In this document: positions 16,851 to 63,336 of the stretch, in pieces | How positions within the stretch are numbered: the first letter of the stretch is position 1 | Layout of the letters: the number at the start of each line of letters is the position of its first letter | Made by a program: the position numbers and the translations under genes | Assembly: GCA_963850905.1 (NCBI GenBank) | Contig: CAWKMU010000003.1 | Location: forward strand, 576,001-640,000 | Source: an uncultured Gemmatimonadales bacterium | GTDB taxonomy: Bacteria; Gemmatimonadota; Gemmatimonadetes; Gemmatimonadales; Gemmatimonadaceae | Reading direction: 5' to 3' | DNA length: 64,000 bases | Notes under the pieces: generated by a model | Databases searched by the model: none | What the model was told of the DNA's origin: nothing | What the model saw: only the letters and a program-made list of their open reading frames with translations

Positions 16851-17894
16851 GTGACGACACCGCGCCTCGGCTCCGCCGCCGAGGTCGTGTCGGATCCTCG
16901 ACCGATGTCAGCACCACCCGACGGGGGCGGCAAAGCCGCCCCCGCGCGCCGAGCCGTCATCCTCGCGTTCGCCGCCGTCTACATCACGTGGGGCTCGACG
17001 TATCTCGGGATCGCGTACGCCATCCGCACGATCCCCGTCTTTCTCATGGGCGCGATGCGGTTCACCGTCGCCGGACTCGTCTTCGTCGCCGTCGCCGCGA
17101 TACAAGGTGCTCCGCGACCCAGCGCGCGGCAGCTGCGCTCGGCGGCGATCGCGGGCGTCCTGCTGCTCTCCATCGGCAACACGGCGGTCGTCTGGGCGGA
17201 GACGCGCGTCCCCAGTGGCACCGCGTCGCTCCTCGTGACGACGCCCGTGTGGCTCGTGCTCATGGAGTGGATGCGGGGCCATCGACCCACGCGAGGGGTC
17301 GTGTGTGGACTCATCCTCGGCGCCATCGGCATCGCCATTCTCGTCGGACCTCAGGGAGTGGCCGGTGCCGGTCGGGTCGACCCGCTGGCCGCGTGCGTGC
17401 TCATCGCCAGCTCGTTGTTCTGGGCGTCCGGCTCGCTCTACAGCCGCTACGCACCCCTGCCGCCGTCACCGCTGCTCGCCACCGGCCTCCAAATGGTGTG
17501 CGGCGCCGCCGTGCTCTTCGTCGTCGCCGGTGCCACAGGAGAGATCCAGCACTTTAGCTTCGCCCAGGTCTCCACGCTGTCCTGGGCCGGCTTCGCCTAT
17601 CTCGTCGTGTTCGGCTCGTGGGTCGGCTTTACAGCCTATATCTGGCTCATGCGAAACGTGCCCACCGAGCACGCCGCGACCTATGCGTTCGTGAATCCCA
17701 TCGTCGCCGTCATTCTTGGCTGGGCCGTCAACCACGAGCCCCTGTCGCCTCGCACCGCGATCGCCGCCGTGACCATCATCGCCGCCGTCGCATCGATTAC
17801 GCTGACCGGCAGGGATCAGGGACCAGGGGTCAGGGGTCAGGGAACAAATCGAAAGGCCGGTCACGGTGCACGCTTACCGGCGTCGGACCGGTAG
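16851..17894 (+). CDS. EamA/DMT family transporter (YedA-like)
   Basis: VYITWGSTY and YAFVNPIVAV motifs, about 10 TM. The C-tail reads into a repeat element. Confidence 0.9.
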   Translation: MTTPRLGSAAEVVSDPRPMSAPPDGGGKAAPARRAVILAFAAVYITWGSTYLGIAYAIRTIPVFLMGAMRFTVAGLVFVAVAAIQGAPRPSARQLRSAAIAGVLLLSIGNTAVVWAETRVPSGTASLLVTTPVWLVLMEWMRGHRPTRGVVCGLILGAIGIAILVGPQGVAGAGRVDPLAACVLIASSLFWASGSLYSRYAPLPPSPLLATGLQMVCGAAVLFVVAGATGEIQHFSFAQVSTLSWAGFAYLVVFGSWVGFTAYIWLMRNVPTEHAATYAFVNPIVAVILGWAVNHEPLSPRTAIAAVTIIAAVASITLTGRDQGPGVRGQGTNRKAGHGARLPASDR

Positions 17895-17974
17895 GGGCGA
17901 CGCATGGCGTCGCCCGTTGTTGTCGTTCGCGGTTGCCGTTCCCCTGACCCCTGACCCCTGACCCCTGGCTCCTG
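17811..17974. repeat. Composite element: (GGGTCAG)n arm, REP, (CTGACCC)n arm
   Basis: Inverted heptamer arms around a GTAG-REP at 17891-17915. The interior closely resembles the copy at 63158-63336. Confidence 0.9.
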
Positions 17975-18844
17975 CACCGCCAACCCAATCCGCCCCCACC
18001 GTATCCGCCCCGTCGTGCGATCGCGCGAGAAGTAGATCGTTCGCGGTCGGCCGAGGACGTCGCTGTCGGCGACAAATCCAATGTATCGACTGTCGATGGT
18101 CTCGCCCCGATTGTCGCCCAGCACAAAGTAGGAGGCTCGCGGCACGACCAGCGGACCCCACGTCGTCAGCGTCGGCCAATAGCTCGCGGAGTCCGACAGG
18201 ACCGCGTACGGGCGCTGCCAATCGAATCGCCGATCCCGGATGTCTCCTTCGTCCGCATGGATGGCGTAGGGCTCGAGCATCGGTCGCCCATCGAGCGACA
18301 GCACGCCGGCATGCATGGCGAGCGTGTCGCCAGGGACGCCGACCACGCGTTTCACGTAGCGTGTCTCCCACAGCTTGTACACGATGAGATCGCCGCGGCG
18401 AACCGGGGTGTTCCGTCGCGGTGCGACGAACAGTCGGTCCCCTTTTAGCAGCGTCGGCGCCATGGTGTCGGTGTCCACGCGGACTCGATCCGCAATGGCG
18501 CTCTCGACCAGGGTGGTCCACGCGACTGACGCGACCCACACGATGCCACAGGCCACGAGGATCGACGCCGGGCGCTGATACCACCGCCAGCCCGCGGCTG
18601 CCGGCCGACGGCGGACGACCCGGACGGCGTCCGCCGCGATGGCAGAGAGGACACCAATGTACACGATCGCGTACGCCGCGAGGCCAACGTGTCCCGCGAG
18701 GACGATGACGGCACCCGCCGCGAACAGCACGACCAGCCGACTCGCGAACCAGGCGGCCGCCCCGCGCCTCGGAGCCCCCGCGTACAGATGGCCCACCCCC
18801 GGCGCGATGAACGACAGGAGAGCAGCGGTCCAGGGACGGGGCAC
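17861..18844 (-). CDS. Signal peptidase I paralogue with extra N-terminal TM domain
   Basis: PGVGHLYAG N-domain, MAPTLLKGD, YVKRVVG and GDNRGETIDSRYIG. The catalytic Ser position is Thr. Confidence 0.85.
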   Translation of the reverse strand: MPRPWTAALLSFIAPGVGHLYAGAPRRGAAAWFASRLVVLFAAGAVIVLAGHVGLAAYAIVYIGVLSAIAADAVRVVRRRPAAAGWRWYQRPASILVACGIVWVASVAWTTLVESAIADRVRVDTDTMAPTLLKGDRLFVAPRRNTPVRRGDLIVYKLWETRYVKRVVGVPGDTLAMHAGVLSLDGRPMLEPYAIHADEGDIRDRRFDWQRPYAVLSDSASYWPTLTTWGPLVVPRASYFVLGDNRGETIDSRYIGFVADSDVLGRPRTIYFSRDRTTGRIRWGRIGLAVQEPGVRGQGSGERQPRTTTTGDAMRRPYRSDAGKRAP

Positions 18845-18871
18845 GAGGAAAGGGATGCTAGACGTCCAACG

Positions 18872-19535
18872 TCACTTCGTCCCCGTCCGCTGATCGTCAT
18901 CGTCGATCGCTGGATACTCGCCGCTCAACACGTCCAGCTCCCGCTCGAATGCGCGCACGGCCGGATCCTCAATGCGCTGGCCGGCTCGACTGACGTAGAG
19001 CAGCACGAGCACGCCAACGAGACCGGCCAGCGCGAGCGCGATGACATCCTCGTAACGGCGTACATGCCGCATCACGAGGTCGGCCGACCGACCGAACACC
19101 CACCCCAGCACCGTGAAGAGGCTGGCCCAGGTGAAGGAGCTGATGCCGCTGCCTGCGAGGTACTCGGCGAGTGGCACGTGCGCGGCGCCGCACGCGATCG
19201 GCAGCGTCAGTCGCAGCCCGTACGCATACCGCACGGCCAGCGAGGAGCGCCATGGGGCGCGGCGGACACCCATCAGCGTCCGCGCGAGTGGCCGACGCAG
19301 CCTCGGCCACCGCTTCCGGAGCCACACGCCGCGCCAGCGGCCCAGAAAGTATAGCCCGAGCCCGCCGACCCACGTCCCAATGGCGCAGCTCAGGGCCACC
19401 CACACGAGTCGCGAGATGCTGCTCGTGCGCCGCGATGCCGCCCGTGATCGGCGAGATCTCCTCGATCACGTTGCTGAGCGCTCCGAGCGAGACGTACGCC
19501 CAGAACGATGTGAGTAGGTCGAGGATCGACGACAT
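18872..19535 (-). CDS. DedA family membrane protein, frameshift near 19405
   Basis: EE..PITGGIAAH, GLYFLGRWRG and VRYAYGLR motifs. Confidence 0.8.
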
Positions 19536-19561
19536 CGGCGAAAGCTATTGCCCCTGGGCGC

Positions 19562-22500
19562 TCAGTCCCCCGGGGCGCCCCCGGGCATCGGCATCCCCGC
19601 GACATCGCCGCGGCTTGAACCACCCGATGCCGATGCGTGCGCGTCCGGCGAGGCGCGGACCCGGAGTCGCGCGAGCAACCGATCGCGCCACTCGTCCAGA
19701 ATCTCGTAGAACGTGGGGATGACGAGCAGCGTCAAGATCGTCGACGTGACCACACCGCCGATCACCGCATCGCCCAGCGGCGCACGGAAGTCCGCGCCCT
19801 CTCCGACGCCCAGCGCAACGGGGATCATGCCGGCGATGAGCGCGACCGTTGTCATGAGGATCGGACGCAACCGAATACGTCCAGCCTCGATGAGCGCCTC
19901 CCGCGTCGACAGCCCGCGCTCCTCGCGCGACCACTTCGCGAAGTCGATGAGCAGAATCGCGTTCTTCGCGACGATGCCCATGAGCAGGATCACGCCGATC
20001 AGGCTCATGATGTTGAGCGTCTGCCTCGTCACGATCAGCGCGAGCACCACGCCGATCAGCGACAGCGGGAGCGACAGCATGATGGCCAGCGGATCGAGGA
20101 ACGATCCGAACTGCACCACCAGGATCAGGTACATGAGCGTCACGGCCACGACCGAGCGCGATCCCGATGCTGTTGTAGACGGTGGCCTGGTCCTTCACTT
20201 GACCGCCATAGGTGATGCGGACACCTGGCGGCCACGGAATCTTGCCCAACCGCTTCTGGATCTCCGAGGAGACCGCACCCAACGGCGCGCCAACCGGATT
20301 GGCGCCGACCGTCACCACTTCGTCTCGATCGAGGTGGTCGATCTCCGCGGGACCAAGTGTCGTGTTGATGGTCGCGACCTGCCCGAGCGGGATCGTCGTC
20401 AGCTGCCCCAGGTTCGTCCCCAACGGCAGCGACATCCCGGGCGCGAGCACGAGCGGCAGTTGTTCCAGATCGGCGGCGTTCGTGCGGAACTCCGGCGCCA
20501 GCCGCACAGTGACGTCCCGCGTCTTGCCCGTTGGATCGACCCAGTCGCCCGCGTGGACGCCGGCAAACGCAGGACGGAGCGACTGCGCGACTTGTCCAAC
20601 CGTGACGCCGAGCGTGCCAGCGAGCCCACGATTGAGATCGACCTCGAGCTCCGGCCGCTGCCCCTTGCTCGAGAGCCCGACGTCCGCTGCGCCCGGCACG
20701 CTGTCCACGACCGGCAGCAGTCGCTCGGCGAACCGCGTGGACCTCGGCCAGGTCGTTGCCGCGGACATCCGCCAAGATCTGCTTCCGGTTGTCGCCGAAC
20801 CCGTTCGAGAACACCCAGGCCGTGACCCCCGCGACGCGCTTCACCTCGTCGCGCACGAGGTTGGAGACCTCGTTCTGGCTCTGTCGTCGCTGCGCCTTGG
20901 GAACGCAGCCGGACGTAGAGGTCCGCCACGTCCACGGCGCCCGACCCCGCCGCGTCTCCGACCGTCGAGTACGTGTACGCCACTTCCTTGTGCGACCGCA
21001 CGATGCGCCCCAGCTCCTCCAGCTTGATCCGCATGTAGTCGAGATTCGAGCCCGGCGGCGTCTGCACCTGGATGTCGAACTCCGAGCGGTCGCTGTCCGG
21101 GATGAACCCGAAGCCTCCGATCCACTGCTGCAGGCCAATGGCGCCGGCGAACGAGCAGACGGCCAGCCCCACCATGACCCAGCGATGGTCGAGCGCCCAG
21201 GCGATCAACCCTTTGTAGGCGTCCGCCTGCCGATCGAACCACGTGTTGAACCGGGACAGGGCTCGCGCGACCGGATTGCGCAGCTCGTGCGTCCTCGAGC
21301 TGGGGGTCCGGCCAGTAGGCGGAGAGCATCGGGTCGAGCGAGAACGACACGAACAGGGACACGAGGACCGCGCACGCAATGGTCAGCGCAAAGGGCTTGA
21401 ACCACTGGCCCGCGATGCCGTTCATGAACGCGACCGGCACGAACACGGCGACGATCGAGAAGGTCGTCGCGGCGACGGCGAGGCCGATCTCGTCGGTGCC
21501 CGTGTGCGACGCCGTCGACGTGGTCTTTGCCCAGCTCGATGTGCCGCACGATGTTCTCCCGGACGACGATCGCATCATCGATCAGGATGCCGATCGCGAG
21601 CGAGAGCCCGAGCAGCGACATCGTGTTGAGCGTGAACCCCCAGGCCCACACCGCGATGAATGCGGCGAGCGTCGACACGGGGAGCGCGAGCCCCGTGATC
21701 ACGGTCGAGCGCCAGCTGTTCAGGAAGAGGAAGACGACGAGGACGGTGAGCAACGCGCCCTCGATGAGCGCCTCCTCGACGTTGCGGACGGAGTTGCGCA
21801 CGCGCTCGCCGGCATCCTTCACGATCGCCAGCTTCACGCCCGCCGGCAGCGTGCGCTGGATCGCGACCACCTGCGCCTTGATGTCGTCGGCCACCCGTGC
21901 CGTGCTCGTCCCTCTGGTCTTGGTGATGTCGAGTCCGATGCCCGGCTGATCATTGAGAAACGCGAGCGACCGCGCCTCGACCGTCGTGTCCTTGCACGTC
22001 CGCTACCTGGCCGAATCGCACGAGCTGCCCGCTTCGATTGGCTACCACGAGCTGGAGAAAATCCTGCGGCGTCTGCAGCCGGCCGACCAGGCGGATCTGC
22101 TTCTCCGTCAGGTCGCCCGTGATGCTGCCGACCGGCGCGGCGAGGTTCTGCGAGTTGAGCGCGTTGACCACGTCGGCGACCGCCACGTGCGCCGCCGCGA
22201 GATCGGGCGGCCGCACGTTCACCGCAATGGTGCGCGCGACGCCGCCCGACACGTTGACCTGCGCCACCCCGACGATGCCACGCAGCTCCTTCGTGATCCC
22301 GGGATCGGCGAGGATCGTCAGCTCGGCCGGCGTCATCGTCTGGGAGGTGAGCGCGAGCGACACGATCGGCAGCTCGTCGGGGTCGAGCTTCTTGATGATC
22401 GGCTCTTTCATCTCGGCCGGCAGATTGTCCCGGATCTCCGGAGATGGCGTCGCGGACATCCTGCGCGGCTTGATCCGCGCTCTTCGCTGAAAACGAACTG

Positions 22501-22780: not shown

Positions 22781-22783
22781 AGC

Positions 22784-23916: not shown

Positions 23917-25826
23917 TGTACGGAATTTCCAGGCGTACCGGTGCTCGTCATCGTCGCCGGCGTAGGAGTAGCCGACCCCGGTGCACCCGGCACCCCGGGC
24001 GCGCCCGGAGCGCCTGGCGCGCCCGGCACGGTGGGCGGCGCGCCCTGCGGCGGCGCGCCTTGCTGCGGCGACGTCGTGCTCGACGGGCTCCCCTGCGAAG
24101 CGCTCTGGGCCGCGCTCGCTCCGGCTTGCGACGTGTTGCTCAGTGGCAGGTCGGCGATGAGCGCGAGATAGATCCGCGCGACTTGCAGGTTCCGCGCAGC
24201 CTGCGCCCGGTTGGCGAGCGCCTGCTCCTGCGCCAGCCGCTGATTCGTGAGCTCGGTCTGCGTCGAGATCCCCTCCCGATACCGCAACTCGGCGATCTGG
24301 TACGCCCGCGCCGCCTGACTCACCGTCCCCACCGTCGCACGCCACGCCGCGTCCGACTGTCGCAGGTTCGCAATGGCCGTACGTGCGTCCAGCGCAGCCA
24401 GCTCACGGGTCTGCTGCAAACGCGCCTGCGCCTCGATGAGATTTGCGCGCGCCACCAGGATGTCCCCGTTGATGTGCCCTCCCGTGAACACGGGTACGGT
24501 GAAGCCCAGAGCCACATTCCAGTTGGTGAGAAAGTCCGGCAGCGACGGAATGCCGACCGGATACGCAATCCGCTGGTAAAAGGAGCTCAGTGAGAGGGTC
24601 GGCAGTCGCTCCGACACCGCCAGCCGGCGCAGCGCCGCCTCCTCCTTGACCGTCTCCACTTGTTCGCGCACGGCCGAGCGGCGGGCGACTGCCGTGTCGA
24701 GCGGCTGCGCGATCGTGTCCGTCGTGGTCACGACGCCGTTCGGACCGACGCTCGTCGCGAGTGACACCAGGTGCACGCCATCCGGAGCCGCAGTGGAGTC
24801 CTCGACGTCGGTCGTCAGGGTCACCGCCGCGTCGAGTGGAAGCTTGAGCAGTTGCTTGAGCCGGTAGTACGCAATGTCGCGATCGCCGCGACGCTGGATC
24901 ACGACAGGGACTTGATTGTTCCGAGTGACCTGTGATTGCAGCAGGTCGAAATCGCTCTGCGTCCCGACATGTGTCCCGACCTGCGCCTGCCGGTAGGTCT
25001 GATCCGCTTCGACCAACGTGGACTCGGCGATCGTCACGAGCCGGTCGGCGAGCGCTGCGTCGTAGTACGCTTGCGTCACGTCGTACGTGACCTGGGCCGT
25101 CTGCGCCCGCACCTCGATCTCGGCTGAGCGACGGGGCGAGGATGCAGCCTGGTTCTGCGCGAGGACCTGGCCGCTGAAGATGGTCTGCGAGAAGTTGAGA
25201 CCGAGGCTGTATTGATTGAGGGCGCCGAACCCGACGCTGCTGAAGTTGATGCCGTTCACGCCGCTGGGACACGATTGTGCAGCATTGAACGCCGCCTGTC
25301 GCTCTCCCGGCGTCGCGAGCGTATCGAGCCGCGGCGTGCACAACGCCTGCAGCGTCGAGGGACTCGGCTCGGACGTGGTGCTGCCCCCAAAGACGCGGTT
25401 GAACGCGGAGTACTGCGTCAACAGCGTGCGGGTATACGCGCCAGCGATCGACAGCTGCGGGAACCATCCCGAGCGGGCCTGTTGGACTTGCCCGCGCGCC
25501 CGCATGATGCCGGCTTGCGCGATCCCGACTGCCTCGCTTTTCAGTACCGCGATCCGGACTGCTTCCGCCAGCGAAAGCGGGTGTGCAGCCGGCGGCTGGG
25601 CGGCCTGAGCGGTCGTGTCGAAGCTCGCGGCGTTCGGCCCGGCGGACGGCGGCGCGACGGCCTGCCCCTCGACCACTCCCGCCGTGAGCAGCACACGCCC
25701 GATGAGGGCGCCAGCGAGCCATGCGCGGACGCCGCGAGGTAAGATCACGCGGCGCGGCGGAGGCGCGTGGCCCCCGACGCACGAGAGAGGAGACAGAGGA
25801 GGGGAGATGAACCGGACTGCATGCAT
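23913..25826 (-). CDS. TolC family outer-membrane protein with Pro/Gly-rich C-tail
   Basis: LSLAEAVRIA, FTVPVFTGG and AELRYREGIS motifs. Start uncertain. Confidence 0.88.
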   Translation of the reverse strand: MHAVRFISPPLSPLSCVGGHAPPPRRVILPRGVRAWLAGALIGRVLLTAGVVEGQAVAPPSAGPNAASFDTTAQAAQPPAAHPLSLAEAVRIAVLKSEAVGIAQAGIMRARGQVQQARSGWFPQLSIAGAYTRTLLTQYSAFNRVFGGSTTSEPSPSTLQALCTPRLDTLATPGERQAAFNAAQSCPSGVNGINFSSVGFGALNQYSLGLNFSQTIFSGQVLAQNQAASSPRRSAEIEVRAQTAQVTYDVTQAYYDAALADRLVTIAESTLVEADQTYRQAQVGTHVGTQSDFDLLQSQVTRNNQVPVVIQRRGDRDIAYYRLKQLLKLPLDAAVTLTTDVEDSTAAPDGVHLVSLATSVGPNGVVTTTDTIAQPLDTAVARRSAVREQVETVKEEAALRRLAVSERLPTLSLSSFYQRIAYPVGIPSLPDFLTNWNVALGFTVPVFTGGHINGDILVARANLIEAQARLQQTRELAALDARTAIANLRQSDAAWRATVGTVSQAARAYQIAELRYREGISTQTELTNQRLAQEQALANRAQAARNLQVARIYLALIADLPLSNTSQAGASAAQSASQGSPSSTTSPQQGAPPQGAPPTVPGAPGAPGAPGVPGAPGSATPTPATMTSTGTPGNSVQ

Positions 25827-25899
25827 CACGCCTTCAAAAGGTAGTCTCCTTTCTCCGTTCTGCAGTTCTCCTGTCTGGGGACGCGACGCGCGCGACGCG

Positions 25900-32266: not shown

Positions 32267-32396
32267 GGTCGGGGGTCAGGGGGGTCAGGGCCCAGGGAAC
32301 CAAACGCACAGCCAGCTGCCGCTCACCGCGACTCGCCTTTCGGTTTGTTCCCTGACCCCCGACCCCTGACCCCTGACCCCGCCGTTCAGCCGTTCA
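32267..32396. repeat. GGGTCAG inverted heptamer element without REP
   Basis: GGGGTCAGG...CAGGGAACCAAA paired with TTTGTTCCCTGACCCC...GCCGTTCA, between convergent genes. Confidence 0.85.
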
Positions 32397-34075
32397 CGCC
32401 CTTACCAGCCTCTTATACGCTATTCGATGCGGCCGGTCCGCATCCACGCCCTTGCGTCGATGGAAGTCCTCGGCGTACGCCCGGTAGTTGCCTTCGAACC
32501 AGACGACCTCGCTGTCGCCCTCAAACGCGAGAATGTGCGTCGCGATGCGGTCGAGAAACCAGCGGTCGTGCGTGATGACGACGGCGCATCCGGCGAAATC
32601 CAGCAGCGCCTCTTCCAGCGCGCGCAGCGTGTCGACGTCGAGATCGTTCGTCGGCTCGTCGAGCAGCAGGAGGTTGCCGCCGCTCTTGAGCAGTTTGGCG
32701 AGGTGCAGCCGATTGCGCTCCCCACCCGAGAGGTCGCTGCACTTTCTTCTGCTGATCCGCACCGCGGAAGTTGAAGCTCGCGAGATACGCGCGCGTGTTC
32801 ATCTCGCGCTTGCCGACGAGCATCGTCTCGTGCCCACCGCTCACCTCCTCCCACACTGATCGCGCGCCGTCGAGGGTCGCGGCTCTGATCCACGTACGCG
32901 AGCTGCACGGTCTCGCCGATCGTGAGCGTACCGCTATCGGGCTTCTCCTCCCCGACGATCAGTCGGAAGAGCGTCGTCTTGCCCGCGCCGTTCGGGCCGA
33001 TGACTCCCACAATGCCGCCACGCGGCAGCGCGAACGACAGCCCGTCGAACAGCAGCGTGTCGCCGAAGCCCTTCTTGAGATCCGTCGCAGTCACGACTTC
33101 GTTGCCCAGGCGCGGCGGTGGCGGAATCACGATCTCGTTCTGCATCACACGCTCGGCCGTGTCGGCTTTCGCGAGATCCTCGTATCGCTGCACGCGAGCC
33201 TTGGACTTCGCCTGCCGGGCGCGCGGCGCCATCCGCACCCACTCGAGCTCGCGCTCGAGCGTCCGCTGGCGGGCCGATGCCTGCTTCTCCTCCTGCGCGA
33301 GCCGCGTGCGCTTCTGCTCGAGCCACGCGCTGTAGTTCCCCTCGTACGGGATCCCGTGCCCGCGATCGAGCTCCAGGATCCAGCCGGCGACGTTGTCGAG
33401 GAAATACCGGTCGTGCGTCACCGCGACGACCGTCCCCGGAAACTCGGCAAGGTGCCGCTCCAGCCACGCCACGCTCTCGGCGTCGAGATGGTTCGTCGGC
33501 TCATCCAGCAGCAGCATGTCGGGCTCCTCGAGCAGCACACGGCAGAGCGCGACGCGACGGCGCTCACCGCCCGAGAGACGCGACACATCGGCGTCGCCCG
33601 GCGGCAGTCGCAGCGCGTCCATCGCGATCTCGATCTTGCGATCGAGCTCCCACGCGTTGCGTGGCCTCGATGCGCTCCTGCACCGCCGCCTGCTCGTCGA
33701 GCAGCTTCGTCATCTCGGCGTCGCGACATCGGCTCGGCGAACCGCAGCCGAGATCTCCTCGTAGCGCCGCACGAGGTCGCGCGTTGCGCGCACCGCCTCC
33801 TCGACATTGCCGCGCACGTCCTTCGACGCGTCCAGCTGCGGCTCCTGCGACAGAAAGCCGATGCGCGTGCCCGCATGCGGCCAGGCCTCGCCCTGAAAGT
33901 CCTGGTCGACACCCGCCATGATCCGCAGGAGCGAGGACTTCCCGGCGCCATTTGCGCCCAGCACGCCGATCTTTGCGCCCGGATAGAAGGACAGCCAAAT
34001 GTCGCGCAAGATCTCCCGCGACGGCGGGACGACTTTGCGCAGACCCTTCATGACGTAGATGAATTGGGGAGCCAT
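32394..34075 (-). CDS. ettA: Energy-dependent translational throttle ABC-F protein, several frameshifts
   Basis: [12 protein letters not shown]...[39 protein letters not shown] and [13 protein letters not shown]. Confidence 0.93.
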
Positions 34076-34110
34076 AATCGGCAGAATGCTAATGGGCTCC
34101 TGGCGTTGAC

Positions 34111-34334
34111 TGAACGGCCGCACGCCAAACAGCGGGGTCAGGGGTCGGGGAAGACCGCGATCCGTCCCTTGGCGGGTAGGGGCGACGCATGCGTCGCCCG
34201 TCGGCGTGACCGCACGACCCGCCTTGGACCGGTAGGGGCGACGCCTTGCGTCGCCCGTCGTTGTCGTTGCGGTTGTTGGTCCCAGACCCCAGACCCCAGA
34301 CCCCGGGTCCCTGACCCCCGCTGTTTGCCGTTCA
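34111..34334. repeat. Composite heptamer element with two REPs (34176-34199, 34232-34256)
   Basis: Termini TGAACGGC..AAACAGCGGGGTCAGGG and CCCTGACCCCCGCTGTTTGCCGTTCA, with internal (CAGACCC)n. Confidence 0.9.
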
Positions 34335-36072: not shown

Positions 36073-36170
36073 GTAGGGGCGACGCATTGCGTCGCCCTCC
36101 TGCACCGCCCGCACCGATTCCCCCTGCGGCGGGTGGGGGCGACGCATTGCGTCGCCCTCCCTCACCGCCC
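36073..36170 (+). repeat. Two tandem REP palindromes with 60-bp period
   Basis: GTAG/GTGG-GGGCGACGCATTGCGTCGCCCTCC..CACCGCCC at 36073 and 36133. Confidence 0.9.
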
Positions 36171-37965: not shown

Positions 37966-37994
37966 AGGACTCGCCGCGAGGCGGCTCGTAGTGC

Positions 37995-38208
37995 GGAGAA
38001 AGGAGAGAGGAGAAAGGAGACAGCGAGGGGGGCCGACAGGCTAGCATAAGGAGGAGAGATAACACCTGGCGTATACCTGCTCCCAGAGCACCAACACCAA
38101 GAGACTGGGCACCAAACAGACGAGTACCGCTCAGTCCTCGTCCCGGCGGTGCGTCCGCGCAGATGCTAGGCGTTGTCTCCTTTCTCCTTTCTGGGGTTCT
38201 CCTTTCTC
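37995..38208. repeat. GGAGAAA inverted heptamer element between divergent PLD and fabI
   Basis: GGAGAAAGGAGAGAGGAGAAAGGAGACAGCG ... CTAGCAT, paired with ATGCTAG ... CGTTGTCTCCTTTCTCCTTTCT. Confidence 0.8.
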
Positions 38209-38269
38209 GGGCGCGTAAGCGCCCGCCCCGCCCCCTTCTGTTCGTAAGCCAACATTCACATCATCCGCC

Positions 38270-39163
38270 ATGCTGACGATCGATCTCACGGGAAAACGCG
38301 CGCTCATTGCAGGCGTGGCCGACGACGCGGGGTACGGGTTTGCGATCGCCAAGGCGCTGGCGAGCGCGGGCGCGACGGTCAGCGTAGCGACATGGCCTCC
38401 AGCGCTCACGATTTTCAGGAACCTGCTCGAGCGCGGGAAAATGGACGCCGCCCGGCGGCTGCCTGACGGGTCGTTGCTCACGTTCGAGCGGATCTATCCG
38501 TTCGACGCGGCCTTCGATACGCTGGCGGACGCACCAGAAGATCTGCGCACGAGCAAACGGTACAAGGAGGTGGGTGACTTCTCGGTCGCCGGACTTGCCG
38601 ACCGCTGGAGGACAGATTTCGGTGATCGCTCGCTCGATATTCTCGTGCACTCGCTCGCGAACGGGCCTGACGTGACCAAGCCCCTGCTCGACACGAGCCG
38701 AGCCGGATACCTCGCAGCTGTGAACGTGAGCGCCTTTTCCCTCGTCGCCCTCGTCGCGCGTCTCGGCCCGCTCCTCCGTCCCGGTGCATCCGTCCTGTCA
38801 CTCACCTACATGGCGAGCGAGCGCGTCATCCCCGGGTACGGCGGCGGCATGTCGTCCGCCAAGGCGGCGCTGGAAAGCGACACGCGCGTGTTGGCCTTCG
38901 AAGCGGGCCGACGTTTTGGCGTCCGCATCAACACGATCTCCGCGGGCCCCCTCGCCTCACGAGCCGCGAGCGCCATCGGCATCATCGAGCGCATGGTCCA
39001 ACACTGCGCCGCCAACTCGCCGCTCCCCGAGCCGGTCCAACCCGCCGACGTCGCCTATACCGCCGCGTTCCTCGCCAGCCCCCTCGGCGCCGGCATCACG
39101 GGCTCCACGGTGTACGTGGACAAGGGGTACCATGTGATGGGGATGGATGTGGGTAAGGCATAA
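38270..39163 (+). CDS. fabI: Enoyl-ACP reductase, plant/Chlamydia type
   Basis: GVADDAGYGFAIAK, HSLANGP and PGYGGGMSSAKAALESDTRVLAFEAGR. Confidence 0.93.
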   Translation: MLTIDLTGKRALIAGVADDAGYGFAIAKALASAGATVSVATWPPALTIFRNLLERGKMDAARRLPDGSLLTFERIYPFDAAFDTLADAPEDLRTSKRYKEVGDFSVAGLADRWRTDFGDRSLDILVHSLANGPDVTKPLLDTSRAGYLAAVNVSAFSLVALVARLGPLLRPGASVLSLTYMASERVIPGYGGGMSSAKAALESDTRVLAFEAGRRFGVRINTISAGPLASRAASAIGIIERMVQHCAANSPLPEPVQPADVAYTAAFLASPLGAGITGSTVYVDKGYHVMGMDVGKA

Positions 39164-39321
39164 CGGCGGGTTTGGGGTTTGGGGTGGGGAACTGCGACAA
39201 ACAGAATCGGCCAATCACGGTGCCCCGTGACTGGCCGTCGCGTTTGTTGTAGTGACCCCAGACCCCAAACCCGCCGTTCAGTTTCCACCCCAGACCCCAA
39301 CGACCCTAGACCCGCAGTTCA
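39162..39321. repeat. GGGTTTG/CAGACCC inverted heptamer element with internal hairpin
   Basis: AACGGCGGGTTTGGGGT paired with ACCCCAAACCCGCCGTT; inner CGGCCAATCACGG..CCGTGACTGGCCG. Confidence 0.85.
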
Positions 39322-52412: not shown

Positions 52413-52424
52413 GGGGCCAACTGC

Positions 52425-52636
52425 GAACGGCGGGGTCAGGGATCAGGGGTCACGGATCAGGGGAACCAAAGGAAAGGCAGGTCCCCCTGCACCGTGACCT
52501 GCCCTGGACCGGTAGGGGCGACGCATTGCGTCGCCCGCCGTGGCCGGGCCGAACGACGACAAATCGGTGCACCAACACCGCTCCAGCCTCCGCGCTTTGT
52601 TCCCTGACCCCTGACCCCTGATCCCTGACACCGTTC
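52425..52636. repeat. Composite heptamer element with REP (52512-52536)
   Basis: GAACGGCGGGGTCAGGGATCAGGGGTCA paired with TGACCCCTGATCCCTGACACCGTTC. Confidence 0.9.
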
Positions 52637-54028: not shown

Positions 54029-54061
54029 GTCTACTTTCTACTTTCTGTGCTTCTACTCTCT
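54029..54061 (-). repeat. AGAAAGT heptamer arm
   Basis: 33-nt exact reverse complement of 59094-59126; supplies the stop codon of the methyltransferase. Confidence 0.9.
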
Positions 54062-54775
54062 CGGGCGCTTTAGCGCATCCCCCATCGTGCGTCGGACAGT
54101 GTACAACGAGATCTGCTGATGCACAGCCCCTTCGTCGTACGGACGGATCTCGGTATTCGCGAGCGCGAGACCGTGGGCCGATAAACTCTCGAGAAACGCC
54201 GGCGCCGCCACCCGCCCCGGATCGGCGATCGTCGCGATCCCGCCCGGCGCCAACGTCTGCAGAATTGCGAAGGCGATGAGCGGCGCGTAGTGCTGCTCGT
54301 AGAGCACGTCCGCCGCGATCACCCGATCAAACTGTCCGAAGTCGGAGGGGAATGTGCGCCAGTCGACCAGCCGCGTATCGGGCACGCAATGCAACGCATG
54401 CCACGCGTTGGCGATCGTAAAACGCAATGCGGCTTCATAATAGTCGGTGGCTGTCACCGCGTAGCCGGCGCGCAACGCGGCGATGGTCGCTAGCCCCAGA
54501 CCGCATCCGAGCTCGAGCAGACGGGGCCGCGGCTCCGCTGCCGGGAGGGGAGTCTCCGCCAATACAGTGGCGAGCACGCGCGCCGACGGCCAGATGTCAG
54601 CCCAATACGGCAGCCGCTCATCGCGCACGAAATCAGCTTCGCTGATGAGATCATCGGGGTTCCGCGGACGCAGGATTTCGACCTCCCACCCGCCCACGGA
54701 CACCGTTTCGACTGCCGTGACGAACTCCCGCTCGAGCGCGCCCCACACCACCGCCGGCGCCGCGTTTGCACACAT
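54053..54775 (-). CDS. Class I SAM methyltransferase, METTL21/Methyltransf_16-like
   Basis: PYWADIWPSA, LELGCGLG and AADVLYE. Confidence 0.85.
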   Translation of the reverse strand: MCANAAPAVVWGALEREFVTAVETVSVGGWEVEILRPRNPDDLISEADFVRDERLPYWADIWPSARVLATVLAETPLPAAEPRPRLLELGCGLGLATIAALRAGYAVTATDYYEAALRFTIANAWHALHCVPDTRLVDWRTFPSDFGQFDRVIAADVLYEQHYAPLIAFAILQTLAPGGIATIADPGRVAAPAFLESLSAHGLALANTEIRPYDEGAVHQQISLYTVRRTMGDALKRPRE

Positions 54776-55326: not shown

Positions 55327-55351
55327 AGGGTAAGGCGAGGTTGGAGCGTAG

Positions 55352-55483
55352 GACGGCAGACGCTGGACGCTGGACGCTAGAGACAAACCTCGAGGCCAGC
55401 TAGATGCAGCGTGCCTGGCCTCGAGGTTTCTCTCCGACGTCCAACGTCTAACGTCTAGCGTCCAGCGTCTAACGTCCAGCGTC
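55352..55483. repeat. GACGCTG inverted heptamer element around a hairpin
   Basis: (GACGCTG)n, then AAACCTCGAGGCCAG..CTGGCCTCGAGGTTT, then (YARCGTC)n. Confidence 0.85.
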
Positions 55484-55508
55484 GAGCCTTTTAGATTCCC
55501 CTCCACCC

Positions 55509-55865: not shown

Positions 55866-55904
55866 GTTAAGGGGTCAGGGGTCAGGGGTCCCAGACCCCG
55901 CAGG

Positions 55905-57416
55905 TCAGCCCCTCAACCCCGTACTCACAAACTTCGTCTCCAAGAACGCATCCATCCCCTCCGGCCCGCCTTCTCGACCGAGGCCGGATTCTTTGAAACC
56001 GCCGAACGGGGCCTGTGCCGTCGACGGAAGCGGGTCGTTGATCCCGACGATGCCGAACTCGAGACGCTCGGCGACTCGCCACGCGCGCGAGAGGTCGTTG
56101 GTGTAGGCGTACGCCGCGAGCCCGTACTTGGTCGCGTTCGCGCGCTGCACCACTTCGTCCTCTGTCGCGAAGCTGGTGACCGGCGCGACTGGGCCAAAGG
56201 TCTCCTCGCGCATGACACGCATCCCGTCGTGCACACCGGCCAGGAGCGTCGGAGCGAAGAAGTGCCCGCGCTCATGGTCCGCTGGACGGTCGCCCCCGAC
56301 GACGACTTGCGCCCCGGACGCGACCGCGTCGCGCACGTGCGCGTCGACCTTCTCTACTGCGGCCGCATCGATGAGTGGGCCGATCTGCACCCCTTCGGTG
56401 AGACCATCGCCGACCCGAAGCGCGCGGATCTGCGGCGCCAACGCTTGCAGAAATGGCTCGAGGACCGACGCATGTACGTAGAATCGGTTCGCGCACACGC
56501 AGGTCTGGCCCGCGTTCCGGAACTTGGATGTGATCGCGCCACGCGCGGCCGCCTCAATGTCCGCGTCGGCAAACACGATGAACGGCGCGTGGCCTCCCAG
56601 CTCGAGTGAGACGCGCTTGACCGAGGCCGCCGCCTCGCGGGCCAGATGCTTGCCGACTTCCGTCGAGCCCGTGAACGTGATCTTCCGCACCGCGGGGTGC
56701 TGCAACATCTCGGCGCCCGCGGGCACGGGATCGTGCGTGGGCACGACGTTGAGCACGCCCGGGGGCAGTCCGGCATCACCAAGGATCGCCGCGATCCGGA
56801 GTGCCGTGAGCGGGGTCTGTTCCGCAGGCTTCAACACCACGGTGCATCCCGCGGCAATTGCAGGCCCCACTTTTCTTGTGACCATCGCGGCCGGGAAATT
56901 CCACGGCGTGATCGCCGCAACGACTCCGACCGGCTGGCGGAGCGTGAGCAATCGCTTGCCAGGGACCGACGCCGGAATCACGCGCCCGTAAATGCGCTCG
57001 GCCTCGCCCGCGGCCCAACCCAGGAAGCTCGCTGCATAGGCGATCTCGCCGCGCGCCTCGGCGAACGGCTTGCCGCCCTCGAGGGTAAGCGTCCGAGCCA
57101 GGCTGCCAGACTGCTCGAGCATCAGCGCTTCCGCTCGTCGAAGAACGCGCGCGCGCTCGAGCGCCGGCGTATCGGACCACGCTGGCAGCGCCCGGCTCGC
57201 ATCGTCTATCGCACCGCGCACATCCTCGCGATCGGCGTCAGCGACCGTCGCAACCGGCTCGAGCGTGGCGGGATTGTAGACCGTGAAACTGCGCTTCGCC
57301 CTGCGCCGCTCTCCACCGACCCACAACCCCTCGCTGGGCGGGGCACTGGGCGCGGCCCCTGCGGTGCGCGGCTCGGTCACACCCGCCGCCGCGCTCTGTA
57401 CCCGGGACGTTGTCAT
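55905..57416 (-). CDS. gabD: NAD(P)-dependent succinate-semialdehyde dehydrogenase
   Basis: ITPWNFP, FTGST, LELGGHAP, NAGQTCVC and EETFGP. Confidence 0.88.
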   Translation of the reverse strand: MTTSRVQSAAAGVTEPRTAGAAPSAPPSEGLWVGGERRRAKRSFTVYNPATLEPVATVADADREDVRGAIDDASRALPAWSDTPALERARVLRRAEALMLEQSGSLARTLTLEGGKPFAEARGEIAYAASFLGWAAGEAERIYGRVIPASVPGKRLLTLRQPVGVVAAITPWNFPAAMVTRKVGPAIAAGCTVVLKPAEQTPLTALRIAAILGDAGLPPGVLNVVPTHDPVPAGAEMLQHPAVRKITFTGSTEVGKHLAREAAASVKRVSLELGGHAPFIVFADADIEAAARGAITSKFRNAGQTCVCANRFYVHASVLEPFLQALAPQIRALRVGDGLTEGVQIGPLIDAAAVEKVDAHVRDAVASGAQVVVGGDRPADHERGHFFAPTLLAGVHDGMRVMREETFGPVAPVTSFATEDEVVQRANATKYGLAAYAYTNDLSRAWRVAERLEFGIVGINDPLPSTAQAPFGGFKESGLGREGGPEGMDAFLETKFVSTGLRG

Positions 57417-57995: not shown

Positions 57996-58025
57996 CGAGA
58001 GCAGGTAGCGAGCCGAGCAGTTTGT

Positions 58026-58051
58026 GGGGCGGCCGCTTTGGGGGCCGCCCC
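58026..58051 (+). terminator. GC hairpin after the HesB-like gene
   Basis: GGGGCGGCC...GGCCGCCCC with a weak U tail. Confidence 0.4.
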
Positions 58052-58058
58052 GTGTGTT

Positions 58059-58102
58059 CTCCCAGAGTCGCCTGATTGATCTCCCAGAGTCGCCTGATTG
58101 AT
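58059..58102 (+). repeat. Perfect 22-bp tandem duplication
   Basis: CTCCCAGAGTCGCCTGATTGAT twice. Confidence 0.9.
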
Positions 58103-58125
58103 ACTGTATGCAGCGGAGGAGTGGA

Positions 58126-59076: not shown

Positions 59077-59129
59077 CGCCGAAGGCGTTACGCAGAGAGT
59101 AGAAGCACAGAAAGTAGAAAGTAGACAAA

Positions 59130-59170
59130 GACGAAGGGCTGGGACCTGTCCCAGCCCTTCGTCCTTTCCT
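59130..59170. terminator. Strong, probably bidirectional terminator
   Basis: GACGAAGGGCTGGGAC paired with GTCCCAGCCCTTCGTC, between convergent genes. Confidence 0.8.
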
Positions 59171-59232
59171 TTGCCGTTCATCTCCTTTCTCCTCTCCCCT
59201 CACTCCTCTCTCAAGGCTAACGCGCCAGCGCG

Positions 59233-59709: not shown

Positions 59710-60048
59710 CGATGCTCCGGCTCCCGAGAGTTGTGTTCGTTCGCACGGTACCGCACACTCCAACCGACTCTCGATTACGGTTGAAGTCGCGGGTGAGCCG
59801 CGCATTGGCTCACTGCACGCGCATGCGCGCCCCCTACACCAAAGCGAATTCCGTGCGAGAGCGCCGGAGCGCATCGACGGTTGACGGGATCCGCTCTGAT
59901 CGACGAGACTGCTTGTGTCGTGTGCCGCTACGCTCGCGTTCGCCGCTGCAGCGCAGACGCAGGACCGGATACACGAGCGTTGATCTGCACCGGACGCCAT
60001 GCATCACCATCTCACCGAGGCGCTGTGTCCGCCACCGTTCCTGACACC

Positions 60049-61026
60049 ATGCAGTTCATTGAGTGTGAGCATCCCGGCCCGCCGGACGTGCTGCGCATCA
60101 CGACGGGACCGACACCGCGGCCACGCGATGACGAGGTCCTCGTTCGAGTGGCGGCAGCGAGTGTCAATCGCCCGGATCTGTTGCAGCGCCAAGGCAAGTA
60201 CCCGCCACCGCCGGGTGCGTCGCCGATCCTCGGTCTGGATGTCGCCGGCGATGTCGTTGCCGTGGGATCGCAGGTGCGGCGTTGGCGAATCGGTGATCGC
60301 GTCTGCGCGTTGGTGTCAGGCGGCGGCTACGCCGAATACTGCGCCGCGCCGGCAGAGCAGTGCCTGCCGGTGCCGCACGGGTTGTCACTGGTCGAAGCCG
60401 CTGCGATCCCGGAGACGTTTTTCACGGTGTGGACCAACCTGTTCCAGCGCGGACGCCTGGCCGCGGGCGAATCCGTTCTGATTCACGGCGGCGCAAGCGG
60501 GATCGGCACGACCGCCATTCAACTCGCGCGCGCACGCGGCGCACGCGTCTTCGCGACGGCCGGCTCCGCCGCCCGATGCGACGCGTGCGTGAAGCTGGGA
60601 GCGGAACTGGCTGTCAACTACCACGACACCGACTTCGTCGCAGCGGTGCGTGAGGCGACAGGAGGTCGGGGTGTCGACGTCGTGCTCGACATGGTCGGCG
60701 GCGCGTACGTCGAGCGCAATCTCGCGGTCCTCACCGTCGAAGGACGACTCGTCCAAATCGCGTTCCTGACGGCGAGCCGCGTCGAAGTCGATCTGCGCAT
60801 CGTGATGACCAAGCGGCTGACCATCACGGGATCGACGCTGCGCCCCCGGTCGATCGCGGAAAAGGGGGCGATTGCCATGGATCTCGAGAGGCACGTGTGG
60901 CCCATCCTCGACAACGGGACGATTCGACCGATCATCTACCGCACGTTTCCGCTCGCCGAGGCGGCCGCCGCACACCGACTCCTCGAGGAGGGCGGCCACG
61001 TGGGCAAGATTGTTCTGCAGGTGTGA
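60049..61026 (+). CDS. NAD(P)H-quinone oxidoreductase (PIG3/zeta-crystallin family)
   Basis: VNRPDLLQRQGKYPPPPG, HGGASGIG, GSTLRPR and HVGKIVL. Confidence 0.92.
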   Translation: MQFIECEHPGPPDVLRITTGPTPRPRDDEVLVRVAAASVNRPDLLQRQGKYPPPPGASPILGLDVAGDVVAVGSQVRRWRIGDRVCALVSGGGYAEYCAAPAEQCLPVPHGLSLVEAAAIPETFFTVWTNLFQRGRLAAGESVLIHGGASGIGTTAIQLARARGARVFATAGSAARCDACVKLGAELAVNYHDTDFVAAVREATGGRGVDVVLDMVGGAYVERNLAVLTVEGRLVQIAFLTASRVEVDLRIVMTKRLTITGSTLRPRSIAEKGAIAMDLERHVWPILDNGTIRPIIYRTFPLAEAAAAHRLLEEGGHVGKIVLQV

Positions 61027-61045
61027 CCACGCGTTTCCGTGCGGG

Positions 61046-61105
61046 GTAGGGGCGACGCCCTGCGTCGCCCGCCATTTGCCGTAGGGGCGACGCCACCCGT
61101 CGCCG
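61046..61105 (+). repeat. Two GTAG-REP palindromes
   Basis: GTAGGGGCGACGCCCTGCGTCGCCC at 61046 and a degenerate copy at 61081. Confidence 0.85.
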
Positions 61106-61388
61106 TTCATCGCGCTCTGTTCTCGGGCGCGAACCGCCGGGGTCGTCGCATCGCCCCCGCAATGCCGCGTGGCTTCTCCGCATCACCGCCGCAACTCCGT
61201 CTGAAACGCCCCGCGTAACTCGTTTGCACGATGAGCCTTGGCGGATGCCCCGGCGTGGCCTGGGATTCGCAATTGGGCAAAACCGCGGATGTGGCTGGCA
61301 CCACCGCGGATCCGAGCGCGCGACCCGTCAGCTCGACGGTGGTGGTGGCAGTCACTCGGTCGGTTCACCGTTCGCCTCGCAGCCCTCG

Positions 61389-62381
61389 ATGCTTCGGCGT
61401 CTTTCGCAGGTTGCTCGACTGAAGTCGGTCGTTCGTACTCACGTCGTGAGTCGGCTCGCGCTGACGGCGTGGGCGATGATGATGGGATTGGCATCACTCA
61501 TCGCCGGAGCGGTCGCCTTGTCCGTCCGGCTGGCGCCCCACGCGTCGCGACGCAGTACGGCGTCCACGCACGCCCCGGACGCGACCCGTCGCGCGCGCGG
61601 CACCCCAGTGCGTCTCGCCAATCTCGCTCCCTCGGTCATTTTTGCCGACGCCAGCACGCTCTCGTACCGCACGAGCCTCACCGACGACGCGCCGGACATC
61701 CAGGACGTCGTCCGCCGTGCAACCCCTGGCGGTCGGCCGACTGAACCCAGTATCGCCGTGCACACCGCGATCGGCGCGTGCCTCACATCCGACCTCGATG
61801 GCTCGGCACACGATCACGACCTGACGGTCACGTGGTTCTTCGCGGCCGACAGCGGCGCGCCACACGGCTCCGGCGAGTATGTCCTCTGGGAACAGCGAAA
61901 CGACTCGACGCCAGTCGCACTCGTGCGGCATGTGCTGCGCGATGGACGCCGGCCATTTCTCGACTACCAATACGTCGTCCCGAGCGGTGACGGCGCTGAC
62001 AGCATTGCCATCGTGCCGCGCACGATGCTCCCCATCAGTCGAGCCGACACGGTCTCGACCCCCGTCGAATGTCCGGTCGTTGCGCGCCGTGTCGTGGCAC
62101 TTCCTCGTGGTCCTCGACGCGAGCGTCCATCCGGCGCACATGGCGCGTGTCCATGTGCTCACCTCACTGCCAGCAATCGACCGCCTCGATCGCCACGAAT
62201 GCCGTGCATCAGTGAAGCGGCAACCGATACTCGCAGCACGAGACGGAGCGCCGCCGGCGTTCACCGGCTAGCCCGAACGGCGCGGTCAGGGATCAGGCGT
62301 CAGGGACCAGGGTACCAAACCACGAGGCCAGTCACGTCGGACTGTGACCGGCCTCGCGTTTTTTGTTTCCCTGACCCCTGA
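61389..62381 (+). CDS. Hypothetical membrane-anchored protein; 3' end uncertain
   Basis: One TM segment (AWAMMMGLASLIAGAVAL), then a beta-rich region. A frameshift near 62100 is possible. Confidence 0.45.
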   Translation: MLRRLSQVARLKSVVRTHVVSRLALTAWAMMMGLASLIAGAVALSVRLAPHASRRSTASTHAPDATRRARGTPVRLANLAPSVIFADASTLSYRTSLTDDAPDIQDVVRRATPGGRPTEPSIAVHTAIGACLTSDLDGSAHDHDLTVTWFFAADSGAPHGSGEYVLWEQRNDSTPVALVRHVLRDGRRPFLDYQYVVPSGDGADSIAIVPRTMLPISRADTVSTPVECPVVARRVVALPRGPRRERPSGAHGACPCAHLTASNRPPRSPRMPCISEAATDTRSTRRSAAGVHRLARTARSGIRRQGPGYQTTRPVTSDCDRPRVFCFPDP

Positions 62382-62400
62382 CTCCTAATCCCGCCGTTCG
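62274..62400. repeat. GGGTCAG element enclosing a terminator-like hairpin
   Basis: CGAACGGCG and CGCCGTTCG termini; inner GAGGCCAGTCAC..GTGACCGGCCTC followed by a T run. Confidence 0.85.
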
Positions 62401-62406
62401 CCATTC

Positions 62407-63159
62407 GTGACAATGCGACAAACGACCCCCACAGAGATGTCGAGCCGCCCTTGCCGTCCTGCGTGGCGGCGGGCCGTATCCTGCGTTAGCATAGGCACAC
62501 TCATGCGTACACGTCTTGCGACGCTCGCCGCGACGCACCCGCGTCGCCAGCCACGACTCCCGGTGTGGATCGGCGCCCTCGCGCTCCTCGCGAGCGCGTG
62601 CAGCCATCGCCCCCCCGTCGAGACAGCCGTTGCCCCCGACGCGCATGTCATTCGCCTCCGGAACTTCACCGTCCTGCAACCGCAAGGCGCGACCAACGCA
62701 TCCGCTTCCTCCGACGCGGTCGTCCGGAATCCGACGACGCTTCACACGATCGGCTTCGAGCTGCTGCTCGCCTTCCAGGCGCGGGGATACTTCGCCGACA
62801 CGGCAGCCCCGGATTTCGCAGTCGCGTATTACGTCGGCGAGCACCTGCCATTCGATACGTCGGTCTTCAAGTACTCGTACCCCTTCGCTCCCTACACCTG
62901 GTGGCACGACTCGCCAGCTGTGCTGCAGGCGTCGCAGTCCCCGTCGCAGGGCATTCTCGTCGTCGACGTGATCAACTCGAAGACCAAAGCGCTGCTCTGG
63001 CGCGGCGAAGCGGCGGTCCCGCTCCCAGGCGACCGCGCCGCATACGTCGAGGCGCTCCAGAACCTCGCCAATGCCATCGCCGGGAAGTTCCAGGCCGGCC
63101 TCGGCACTGGCCCGGTCGCCCCCGCGCCTCTGCCGCACGGAGGCAGACCGGGACGGTAA
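62407..63159 (+). CDS. DUF4136 family lipoprotein
   Basis: LASAC lipobox, PDFAVAY and GILVVDVIN..TKALLWRG. Start is probably 62503. Confidence 0.75.
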   Translation: MTMRQTTPTEMSSRPCRPAWRRAVSCVSIGTLMRTRLATLAATHPRRQPRLPVWIGALALLASACSHRPPVETAVAPDAHVIRLRNFTVLQPQGATNASASSDAVVRNPTTLHTIGFELLLAFQARGYFADTAAPDFAVAYYVGEHLPFDTSVFKYSYPFAPYTWWHDSPAVLQASQSPSQGILVVDVINSKTKALLWRGEAAVPLPGDRAAYVEALQNLANAIAGKFQAGLGTGPVAPAPLPHGGRPGR

Positions 63160-63336
63160 CGGCGGGGTCGGCAAACGGCGGGGTCAGGGGTCAGGGAACA
63201 AATCGAAAGGCTGATCACGGTGCGCCGCGACCAGCCTTGGACCGGTAGGGGCGACGCATTGCGTCGCCCGTTGGTGTCGTTGCCGTTGTCGTTCCCCGGC
63301 GCCTGACCCCTGACACCCGATCCCGCCGTTTGCCGT
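63158..63336. repeat. Composite heptamer element with REP (63245-63269)
   Basis: CGGCAAACGGCGGG and CCCGCCGTTTGCCG termini; interior nearly the same as 17811-17974. Confidence 0.9.

Follow-up and report, generated by a model that had tools for sequence, protein, structure and literature searches.

A family of gene-less palindromic elements, the GG family, with arms built of tandem heptamers, lies between genes in a 64,000-nucleotide stretch of DNA from an uncultured Gemmatimonadales bacterium (GenBank assembly GCA_963850905.1; positions 576001-640000 of contig CAWKMU010000003.1). This whole stretch is referred to as the window (G000:C3:576001-640000, where G000 is the source assembly, 4.49 Mb in size and 82% complete). 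With a probability of roughly 0.55, we read the elements as likely derivatives of cassettes for the four-helix-bundle protein IVP. They would be replaced as whole units at the 3′ ends of genes, a new copy likely entering the hairpin of an old one, and the repetitive extragenic palindrome (REP) enclosed by some copies is likely a passenger. Behind this reading stand direct observations on the anatomy of the elements, on IVP genes within the same arms elsewhere, on sites that persist while their occupants are replaced, nested, collapsed or inverted without target duplication, on a REP at a fixed position together with a matching transposase-like gene, and on strand polarity.

Anatomy of the heptamer-armed palindromes

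A de novo scan for 7-periodic tracts forming inverted pairs defined the families. G000 contains 112 paired palindromes of the GG family (GGGGTCA and variants), 83 of the AC family (GACGCTG/GACGTTG) and 48 of the AG family (AGAAAGG/T), and a fourth family with GGGTGAC arms contributes 16 pairs. An exact 16-mer from the arms occurs 122 times in the genome, and its backwards control not once. The basic GG element measures about 100-115 bp and runs from a terminus through 2-5 heptamers and a short A-rich linker to an inner hairpin, after which the mirror image follows; the termini are doubled in 14/112 GG elements. The inner hairpin pattern recurs in 82/112 GG, 54/83 AC, 11/16 GGGTGAC and 3/48 AG elements, and since GG, AC and GGGTGAC have it in common, we regard these three families as sisters with different arms.

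An earlier reading made from the sequence alone (the sequence-only reading) had reported seven full elements and a stub in the window, all of which were located where it had placed them. Its description of a dispersed, gene-less and fast-turning-over family is likewise supported, with the 112 paired GG copies counted genome-wide. Four full elements were folded and form long hairpins (z = -6.4, -3.7, -11.1 and -7.4), and the stub gives z = -1.8. No Rfam family reached threshold in a scan of the window, and a known RNA family is excluded on that basis. Four elements do enclose a REP of the GTAG type (starting at 17891, at 34176 and 34232 within one element, at 52512 and at 63245), but the three alternative interiors proposed at the same time were not found: six of the seven share the inner hairpin (degenerate at 32267), only the element at 34111 being without a clear one, and where a REP accompanies this hairpin it is an addition on the 3′ side. 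Genome-wide, the REP is joined directly 3′ of the inner hairpin at a recurring junction in 31/112 GG elements, and nine others contain a second REP type. In total, 40/112 GG elements carry a REP, compared with 3/131 AC and AG elements (p = 1e-12). REP-free are 72/112 GG, 80/83 AC and 48/48 AG elements, or 200/243 paired elements overall.

Cyanobacterial short tandemly repeated repetitive (STRR) sequences are short, dispersed, intergenic arrays of 7-base units. Compared with STRR by description only, the arrays here differ in being the paired arms of a defined element with shared core and termini. Target-site duplication is a hallmark of miniature inverted-repeat transposable elements (MITEs); among 22 elements with clear termini, a 2-nt match was present in three and a match of 3-9 nt in none. 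The MITE-like character assigned by the sequence-only reading thus holds for the short non-coding sequence, the terminal inverted repeats and the many copies (112), but not for target duplication (0/22) or for an insertion sequence with the same repeats: no insertion-sequence-like gene enclosed by these arms was found in G000 or in the fetched stretches of its relatives. Bacterial MITEs such as NEMIS, RUP and ERIC are also 70-300 bp long, non-coding, bounded by terminal inverted repeats, situated beside coding sequences and strongly folding (PMC3733652). Unlike these, the present elements have no target duplication, tandem-heptamer arms of variable number and no transposase sharing the arms, and they reuse occupied sites. 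The window was correctly said to hold no transposase gene, as no transposase domain is present in its 73 open reading frames (ORFs) by Pfam; two genes resembling REP-associated tyrosine transposases (RAYTs) lie elsewhere in the genome.

Family replacement at orthologous sites

The sites were compared with those of two relatives, G004 (93% complete, flanks ~92-93% identical to G000) and G001 (70% complete, ~85%), from which 860 kb and 460 kb were fetched within a total of 1.38 Mb of relatives' DNA. A relaxed GG arm detector gave 66 arms in 1.5 Mb of reversed sequence, which are false positives, versus 242 real ones. An element was therefore scored as present only when its arms were paired.

The sole conserved element of the window lies at 62274-62400 (inner hairpin 62326-62353, no REP); it is present whole in G004 and as left arm and core in G001. 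The REP-bearing element at 17811-17972 (left arm 17811-17842, inner hairpin 17855-17881, REP 17891-17915 on the plus strand, right arm 17938-17972) corresponds to an AG-family element in both G004 and G001, as does the nested element with double termini at 63158-63336 (inner hairpin 63209-63236, REP 63245-63269). AC-family elements occupy two further sites in both relatives. The first is that of the REP-free element at 32267-32387 (degenerate inner hairpin 32309-32337), which takes up the space between two convergent genes, downstream of both stop codons. The second is that of a GGGGTTT/GGGGTCT variant at 39162-39280 (inner hairpin 39209-39236, leftover second right arm to ~39325), whose terminus shares bases with the TAA that ends the upstream reductase gene (38270-39163) and whose site holds an AG-family element in another relative, G002. 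The REP-bearing element at 52425-52636 (inner hairpin 52476-52503, REP 52512-52536), which also fills a convergent gap, is matched by an AC-family element in G004. At 34111-34334, where G000 has a nested element with double termini and two tandem REPs (34176-34199 and 34232-34256), G004 retains a short collapsed hairpin, G001 an AG-family element and G002 arms of the GGGGTCC type. The collapsed GG stub at 55871 (55866-55912) fills a convergent gap; at its site G004 and G001 have comparable stubs that enclose a small hairpin.

At the 17811 site, an EamA-family ORF (16905-17894) runs through the left arm and uses as its stop the TAG of the REP's GTAG; in each genome the ORF ends inside whichever element is there. 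The ORF of G000 lacks a stop codon outside the element, which lengthens its product by about 30 residues; the stop used in G004 and G001 appears to be supplied by a different element.

Between G000 and G004, 584 orthologous gaps were compared, 40 of them with a paired GG element in G000. At these 40 sites, G004 carries an AC or AG element in 17 cases, a GG element in 13, and single arms or nothing in 10. AC or AG elements thus occupy 17/40 GG sites versus 12/435 gaps without a detected arm (p = 4e-13), and this applies to tandem gaps (12/25 vs 8/333) as well as convergent gaps (5/14 vs 4/39). The background of 12/435 is too high because the detector misses the GGGTGAC family and degenerate copies. 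More specifically, 15 arm-free gaps have any element in G004, and a remnant or fourth-family element was found in 10 of them by pattern and in 3 more by eye; 333/338 remnant-free G000 gaps are element-free in G004 too. Swaps between families go in both directions. The sequence-only reading had proposed looking in relatives for empty sites and target duplications; orthologous sites are in fact seldom empty and often hold another family, and no duplication was seen.

Whole elements are overwritten, because the inner loop is conserved in GG/GG but not in GG/AC orthologues. Core retention amounts to 0.59 vs 0.01 in GG/GG pairs (n = 8, p = 0.0005) and to 0.04 vs 0.04 in GG/AC pairs of G000 and G004 (n = 9, p = 0.47); in AC/AC pairs it is not clear (p = 0.15 and 0.37). 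Telomerase-like rewriting of the arms around a kept core was rejected for G000/G004, as GG/AC orthologues share their core no more than random pairs do. The 'swappable core' of the sequence-only reading therefore survives in altered form: between relatives an exchange does take place at a fixed site, but it involves the whole element rather than the core, and the REP is an addition. Intermediates are visible as AG elements and REP doublets within GG arms, as doubled termini, as interiors in reversed orientation and as collapsed remnants.

Public short-read contigs, from a run that may represent the source sample, agree without substitutions with the 62274 element and, over its right part, with the 52425 element. 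The 62274 element is therefore not a long-read artefact; joints between repeats are not interpretable in such contigs.

A four-helix-bundle gene within the same arms

Profile searches with Pfam and NCBIfam form the basis for all conclusions on IVP. An exact-pattern search of 185,579 GTDB genomes for GG arms 421-481 nt apart returned 11 loci, in 6 of which an intact TIGR02436/IVP gene fills the interior (76-129 bits, cut-off 24). With a relaxed arm pattern, 401 same-phylum genomes yielded three loci, all with a TIGR02436 gene and one with GGGGTCA arms. GG-type heptamer units surround IVP genes at loci L073-L075, L077-L079 and L148. Starting from the gene, an automatic test found inverted 7-mer arms, each with its own unit, around 14/29 PF05635 loci of relatives (the 29 retrieved from a list of over 130 matches, in most cases the top one of each genome), compared with 2/400 same-sized G000 genes. 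Furthermore, both flanks of an AC-armed IVP cassette of G001 (L026) align, at 82% identity, with those of a gene-less AC element at G000:C3 ~2817425-2817560.

A small gene flanked by the same arms, which the sequence-only reading had suggested seeking in the genome, was not found with GG arms in G000, but an IVP gene does lie in such arms elsewhere. No convincing gene-filled GG cassette was present in G000 or in the 1.38 Mb of relatives' DNA, and long left-to-right arm pairs taken as candidates were rejected as chance pairings of single arms. A GxxExxY nuclease was dismissed as a partner, PF13366 being found in 0/5 genomes (G000, G001, G002, G004 and G009; 67-98% complete). In other phyla, GGGGTCA arms at L070, L071 and L072 enclose other repeat types and no gene, which suggests that nesting inside such arms is general.

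The design resembles that of the ORF-bearing intervening sequences of 23S rRNA in Coxiella and Leptospira (S23p/23S_rRNA_IVP, PF05635, TIGR02436), which have terminal inverted repeats and a long stem, tandem heptamers in the 5′ arm of the stem in Coxiella, and, where filled, a four-helix-bundle gene in the loop (PMC4990558). In contrast, the copies described here are gene-less, number in the hundreds, stand behind protein-coding stop codons and turn over between close relatives; all GG copies of the window lie between protein genes, not in 23S rRNA. A four-helix-bundle ORF is missing from the loops of the gene-less window copies and present at the orthologous AC site in G001. The elements behave like REP/BIME or MITE repeats, but their closest match in design is the IVP intervening sequence, of which they are best seen as a variant without the gene.

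In a distinct IVP subfamily, the gene is not flanked by arms on both sides but is immediately preceded by a complete AG palindrome. Its members lie at G000:C3 13553-46430 (L001-L004) and in G004 (L031, L035), G002 (L032, L036) and G009 (L037). L031 immediately follows a tRNA-Pro gene; at the orthologous site, G000 retains the palindrome without the gene.

Most likely, a new palindrome is copied into a resident hairpin behind a stop codon, and older layers collapse or are deleted during replication. The IVP protein may serve as a trans-acting helper while host enzymes cut and join. This is the weakest step, for which the odds seem slightly unfavourable, given the failure to find a GG-armed gene and the lack of any known catalytic activity. 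For the composites, the RAYT probably placed the REP in one GG copy, and the REP-bearing copy would then have been amplified as a unit in this lineage.

Several points weigh against this reading. Five of the 11 GTDB arm loci are without an IVP gene. Neither G000 (82% complete) nor G004 (93%) nor G001 (70%) yielded an IVP gene with GG arms, so that IVP is a putative mover of these arms, and the GG family flourishes although no gene was detected inside arms of its own type. The four IVP hits of G000 have an AG palindrome upstream only, and three match part of the profile; both IVP genes of G004 are of this upstream type, and the single one of G001 is AC-armed. The IVP protein family has no known catalytic activity and is described as having 'no known function' (PMC4990558). 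GG/AC core similarity between G000 and G001 is borderline (0.13 vs -0.01, n = 7, p = 0.05). AC-inside-GG intermediates are rare, 1/83 having both GG termini, though AC/GG is the commonest swap. The strand polarity described below shows no clean reversal on the right replichore of G000 (REP 19:14, single arms about even). Finally, the site comparison comprises G000, G004 and G001 only, all of them kin, and gene ends were set by a home-made caller on an assembly that carries 1-base indel errors.

A wider reading, which we put forward as speculative and rather unlikely, is that of a transposase-free class of mobile DNA. Four-helix-bundle (Avd-like) proteins would help to copy heptamer-armed palindromes into hairpins at gene 3′ ends, and the families would displace each other at set positions, altering stop codons and 3′ untranslated regions (UTRs) and carrying REPs. 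If this were true, the large orphan IVP family would gain a function and dispersed bacterial heptamer repeats would be explained.

The observations themselves tell apart two systems resembling one, namely a known REP/RAYT pair and the larger repeat in which it rides, whose arms tie to a protein family with no assigned function. In-place family replacement at orthologous gene ends without target duplication is a mode of repeat turnover, by which 3′ UTRs, and sometimes stop codons, are rewritten at a sizeable share of sites between 92%-identical relatives. Two old questions become testable: the job of the IVP protein and the spread of transposase-less palindromic repeats.

Alternative explanations and further features of the window

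The dnaA gene lies at C3:1.000 Mb, where the sign of the skew changes. On the left replichore of G000, 161 REPs are on the plus strand vs 6 on the minus strand, regardless of the direction of the neighbouring gene, and in G004 the REP orientation flips at dnaA (9:1 left, 1:7 right). REP-free single arms on the left replichore of G000 are likewise one-sided (40:2, 27:2 and 39:12). Because these arms are polarised, the bias extends beyond the substrates of RAYTs, and the replication fork is implicated. Judging from the skew, the GTAG strand would here be the leading-strand template; lagging-strand dependence is documented for IS608-type HUH enzymes (PMC6006769). The left side (C3 0-1.0 Mb) has a stronger skew and, with 121 vs 33, many more REPs than the right (1.0-2.5 Mb), which is not its mirror; a rearrangement or an assembly problem is a possible cause. 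Two additional DnaA-domain matches occur in one 684-aa open frame at G000:C3:2846145-2847758, distant from the origin.

The polarity of the single arms would also fit turnover by the host alone. Palindromes would break or slip at the fork and be repaired from other copies by ectopic recombination, with IVP as cargo like the REPs and no element-encoded factor. This is compatible with the lack of target duplication and of any GG-armed gene in three family-rich genomes, with interiors whose orientation in G004 is the reverse of that in G000 (C3:432575 and 830628), and with orthologous AC sites, at which each genome has its own arm variant. However, a GG/AC swap exchanges the termini and arms along with the core, so that conversion would have little homology to act on, and the heptamer arms of many different units on IVP genes across phyla would stay unexplained. 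We therefore consider a host-only process unlikely.

The GTAG-REP, a GC-rich hairpin with GTAG at its 5′ foot, is present in 228 copies in G000. Its link to a RAYT, made by the sequence-only reading, is supported by a matching RAYT-like gene at C3:704429-704998, 64 kb past the window, which lies between arrays of this REP with the same 5′ GGACCG flank. The best family of this gene is NF047646 (E 1e-18, 67.5 bits, under the 80-bit cut-off). A second RAYT-like gene (C3:875545-875057) pairs with the other REP type of G000. Close homologues (E < 1e-40) of the C3:704429-704998 gene, again with this REP on their flanks, are present in three relatives, G001, G002 and G004, which alone among 40 show the REP-plus-3′-flank pattern; these three are kin, not independent. 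RAYT2 homologues in close relatives (L141-L143, L146) are 48-59% identical, although nearby DNA is 85-92% identical; the one in G004 is off its syntenic place, and the G001 copy has an internal TGA.

Below 1.1 Mb, 44/50 GG elements were mapped to G004. Among 23 REP-bearing mapped elements, G004 keeps a paired GG element in 4 and the REP in 2, whereas 10 of 20 plain ones are kept; one further element has the other REP type. Because G004 keeps fewer REP-bearing than plain GG elements, the composite looks like a recent expansion in the G000 lineage. In G001, the orthologue of C3:558891 looks like a clean loss of the REP.

The young-looking composites, the apparent REP loss and the matching gene with its homologues would all suit a REPIN-like element (REPIN, REP doublet forming hairpin) in which the internal REP is the recognition site for a RAYT that mobilises the entire arm-wrapped composite, REP-free copies being products of decay. 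Yet the large majority of paired elements (200/243) are REP-free, the nearly REP-free AC family also loses its core at orthologous sites (the p values of 0.15 and 0.37 above), the polarity is common to REP-free single arms, and the gene inside such arms is IVP, not RAYT. The ends are heptamer arms rather than inverted REPs, and the REP is internal, single or tandem, and not an inverted doublet. Neither a RAYT as mover of the arms nor, for the whole element, the REPIN likeness suggested by the sequence-only reading is thus upheld, and we rate this explanation as quite unlikely. True inverted doublets of the second REP type do sit nested inside some GG arms. The GTAG-REP is an ordinary REP, likely added by the RAYT of the genome as a passenger.

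With its RAYT-like gene flanked by the same REP, the internal 25-nt GTAG hairpin corresponds to known GTAG-REPs, REPINs and bacterial interspersed mosaic elements (BIMEs) with their RAYTs (PMC3733652, PMC6006769, PMC3116915), and REPs are typically located downstream of genes. Here, in contrast, the host palindrome is an abundant family of its own, which has arms of heptamers and is associated with another gene, and the REP, unlike that of a REPIN, occurs singly and always at one internal place. Larger palindromes with regular REP insertions have already been recorded; the host palindromes of Anabaena and Halothiobacillus were not found without REPs (PMC3733652), whereas those described here are mostly REP-free.

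Element ends have a stop codon at -10 to +20 nt in 55/69 and 56/70 cases by the home-made gene calls and a start codon equally close in just 7/31 on each side, and 46/112 GG elements lie in convergent gaps and 6 in divergent ones. This placement, the frequent provision of the stop codon by the element and the cutting of the related rRNA element by RNase III (PMC4990558) could be accounted for by wide, untargeted insertion with survival only at 3′ positions that tolerate or need a hairpin (a terminator, RNA stabiliser or RNase III site), but this is highly improbable in that the enrichment persists within tandem and within convergent gaps, roomy gaps stay empty (230/236 gaps of at least 60 nt are without an AC/AG element in G004), newcomers lie inside older arms and several sites have collapsed with no replacement.

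The reading as replaced IVP-cassette derivatives has located precedents in the rRNA intervening sequences (PMC4990558) and in REPs within palindromes (PMC3733652). In literature whose coverage mostly excludes subscription journals, no account was found of heptamer-armed IVP genes outside rRNA or of in-place family replacement, and the accessible parts of PMC3936711 and PMC3116915 contain nothing on the heptamer-armed palindrome design.

The window also holds members of the sister families. An AC-family element absent from the sequence-only reading lies at 55351-55475, with GACGCTG/GACGTTG arms and an inner hairpin of the same type as in the GG elements. An AG-family element with AGAAAGT/AGAAAGG arms is found at 670-773, and further ones at ~25790-25885, 38000-38230, 54029-54075 (a single arm) and 59094-59200. 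Free GTAG-REPs of the same type lie outside arms at 36073-36097 and at 11875, 31295 and 61046, all on the plus strand.

Three genes on the minus strand are split over several frames, an ABC-F (EttA-like) gene at 32420-34076 and AcrB-family genes at 743-3843 and 19545-22459; since short-read contigs differ by 1 base elsewhere in the window, these splits are probably assembly errors. The AG arms at 37990-38235, upstream of an enoyl-reductase-like gene, flank about 130 bp of unique DNA that is kept in G004 and G001 and that is possibly a captured promoter or small RNA.

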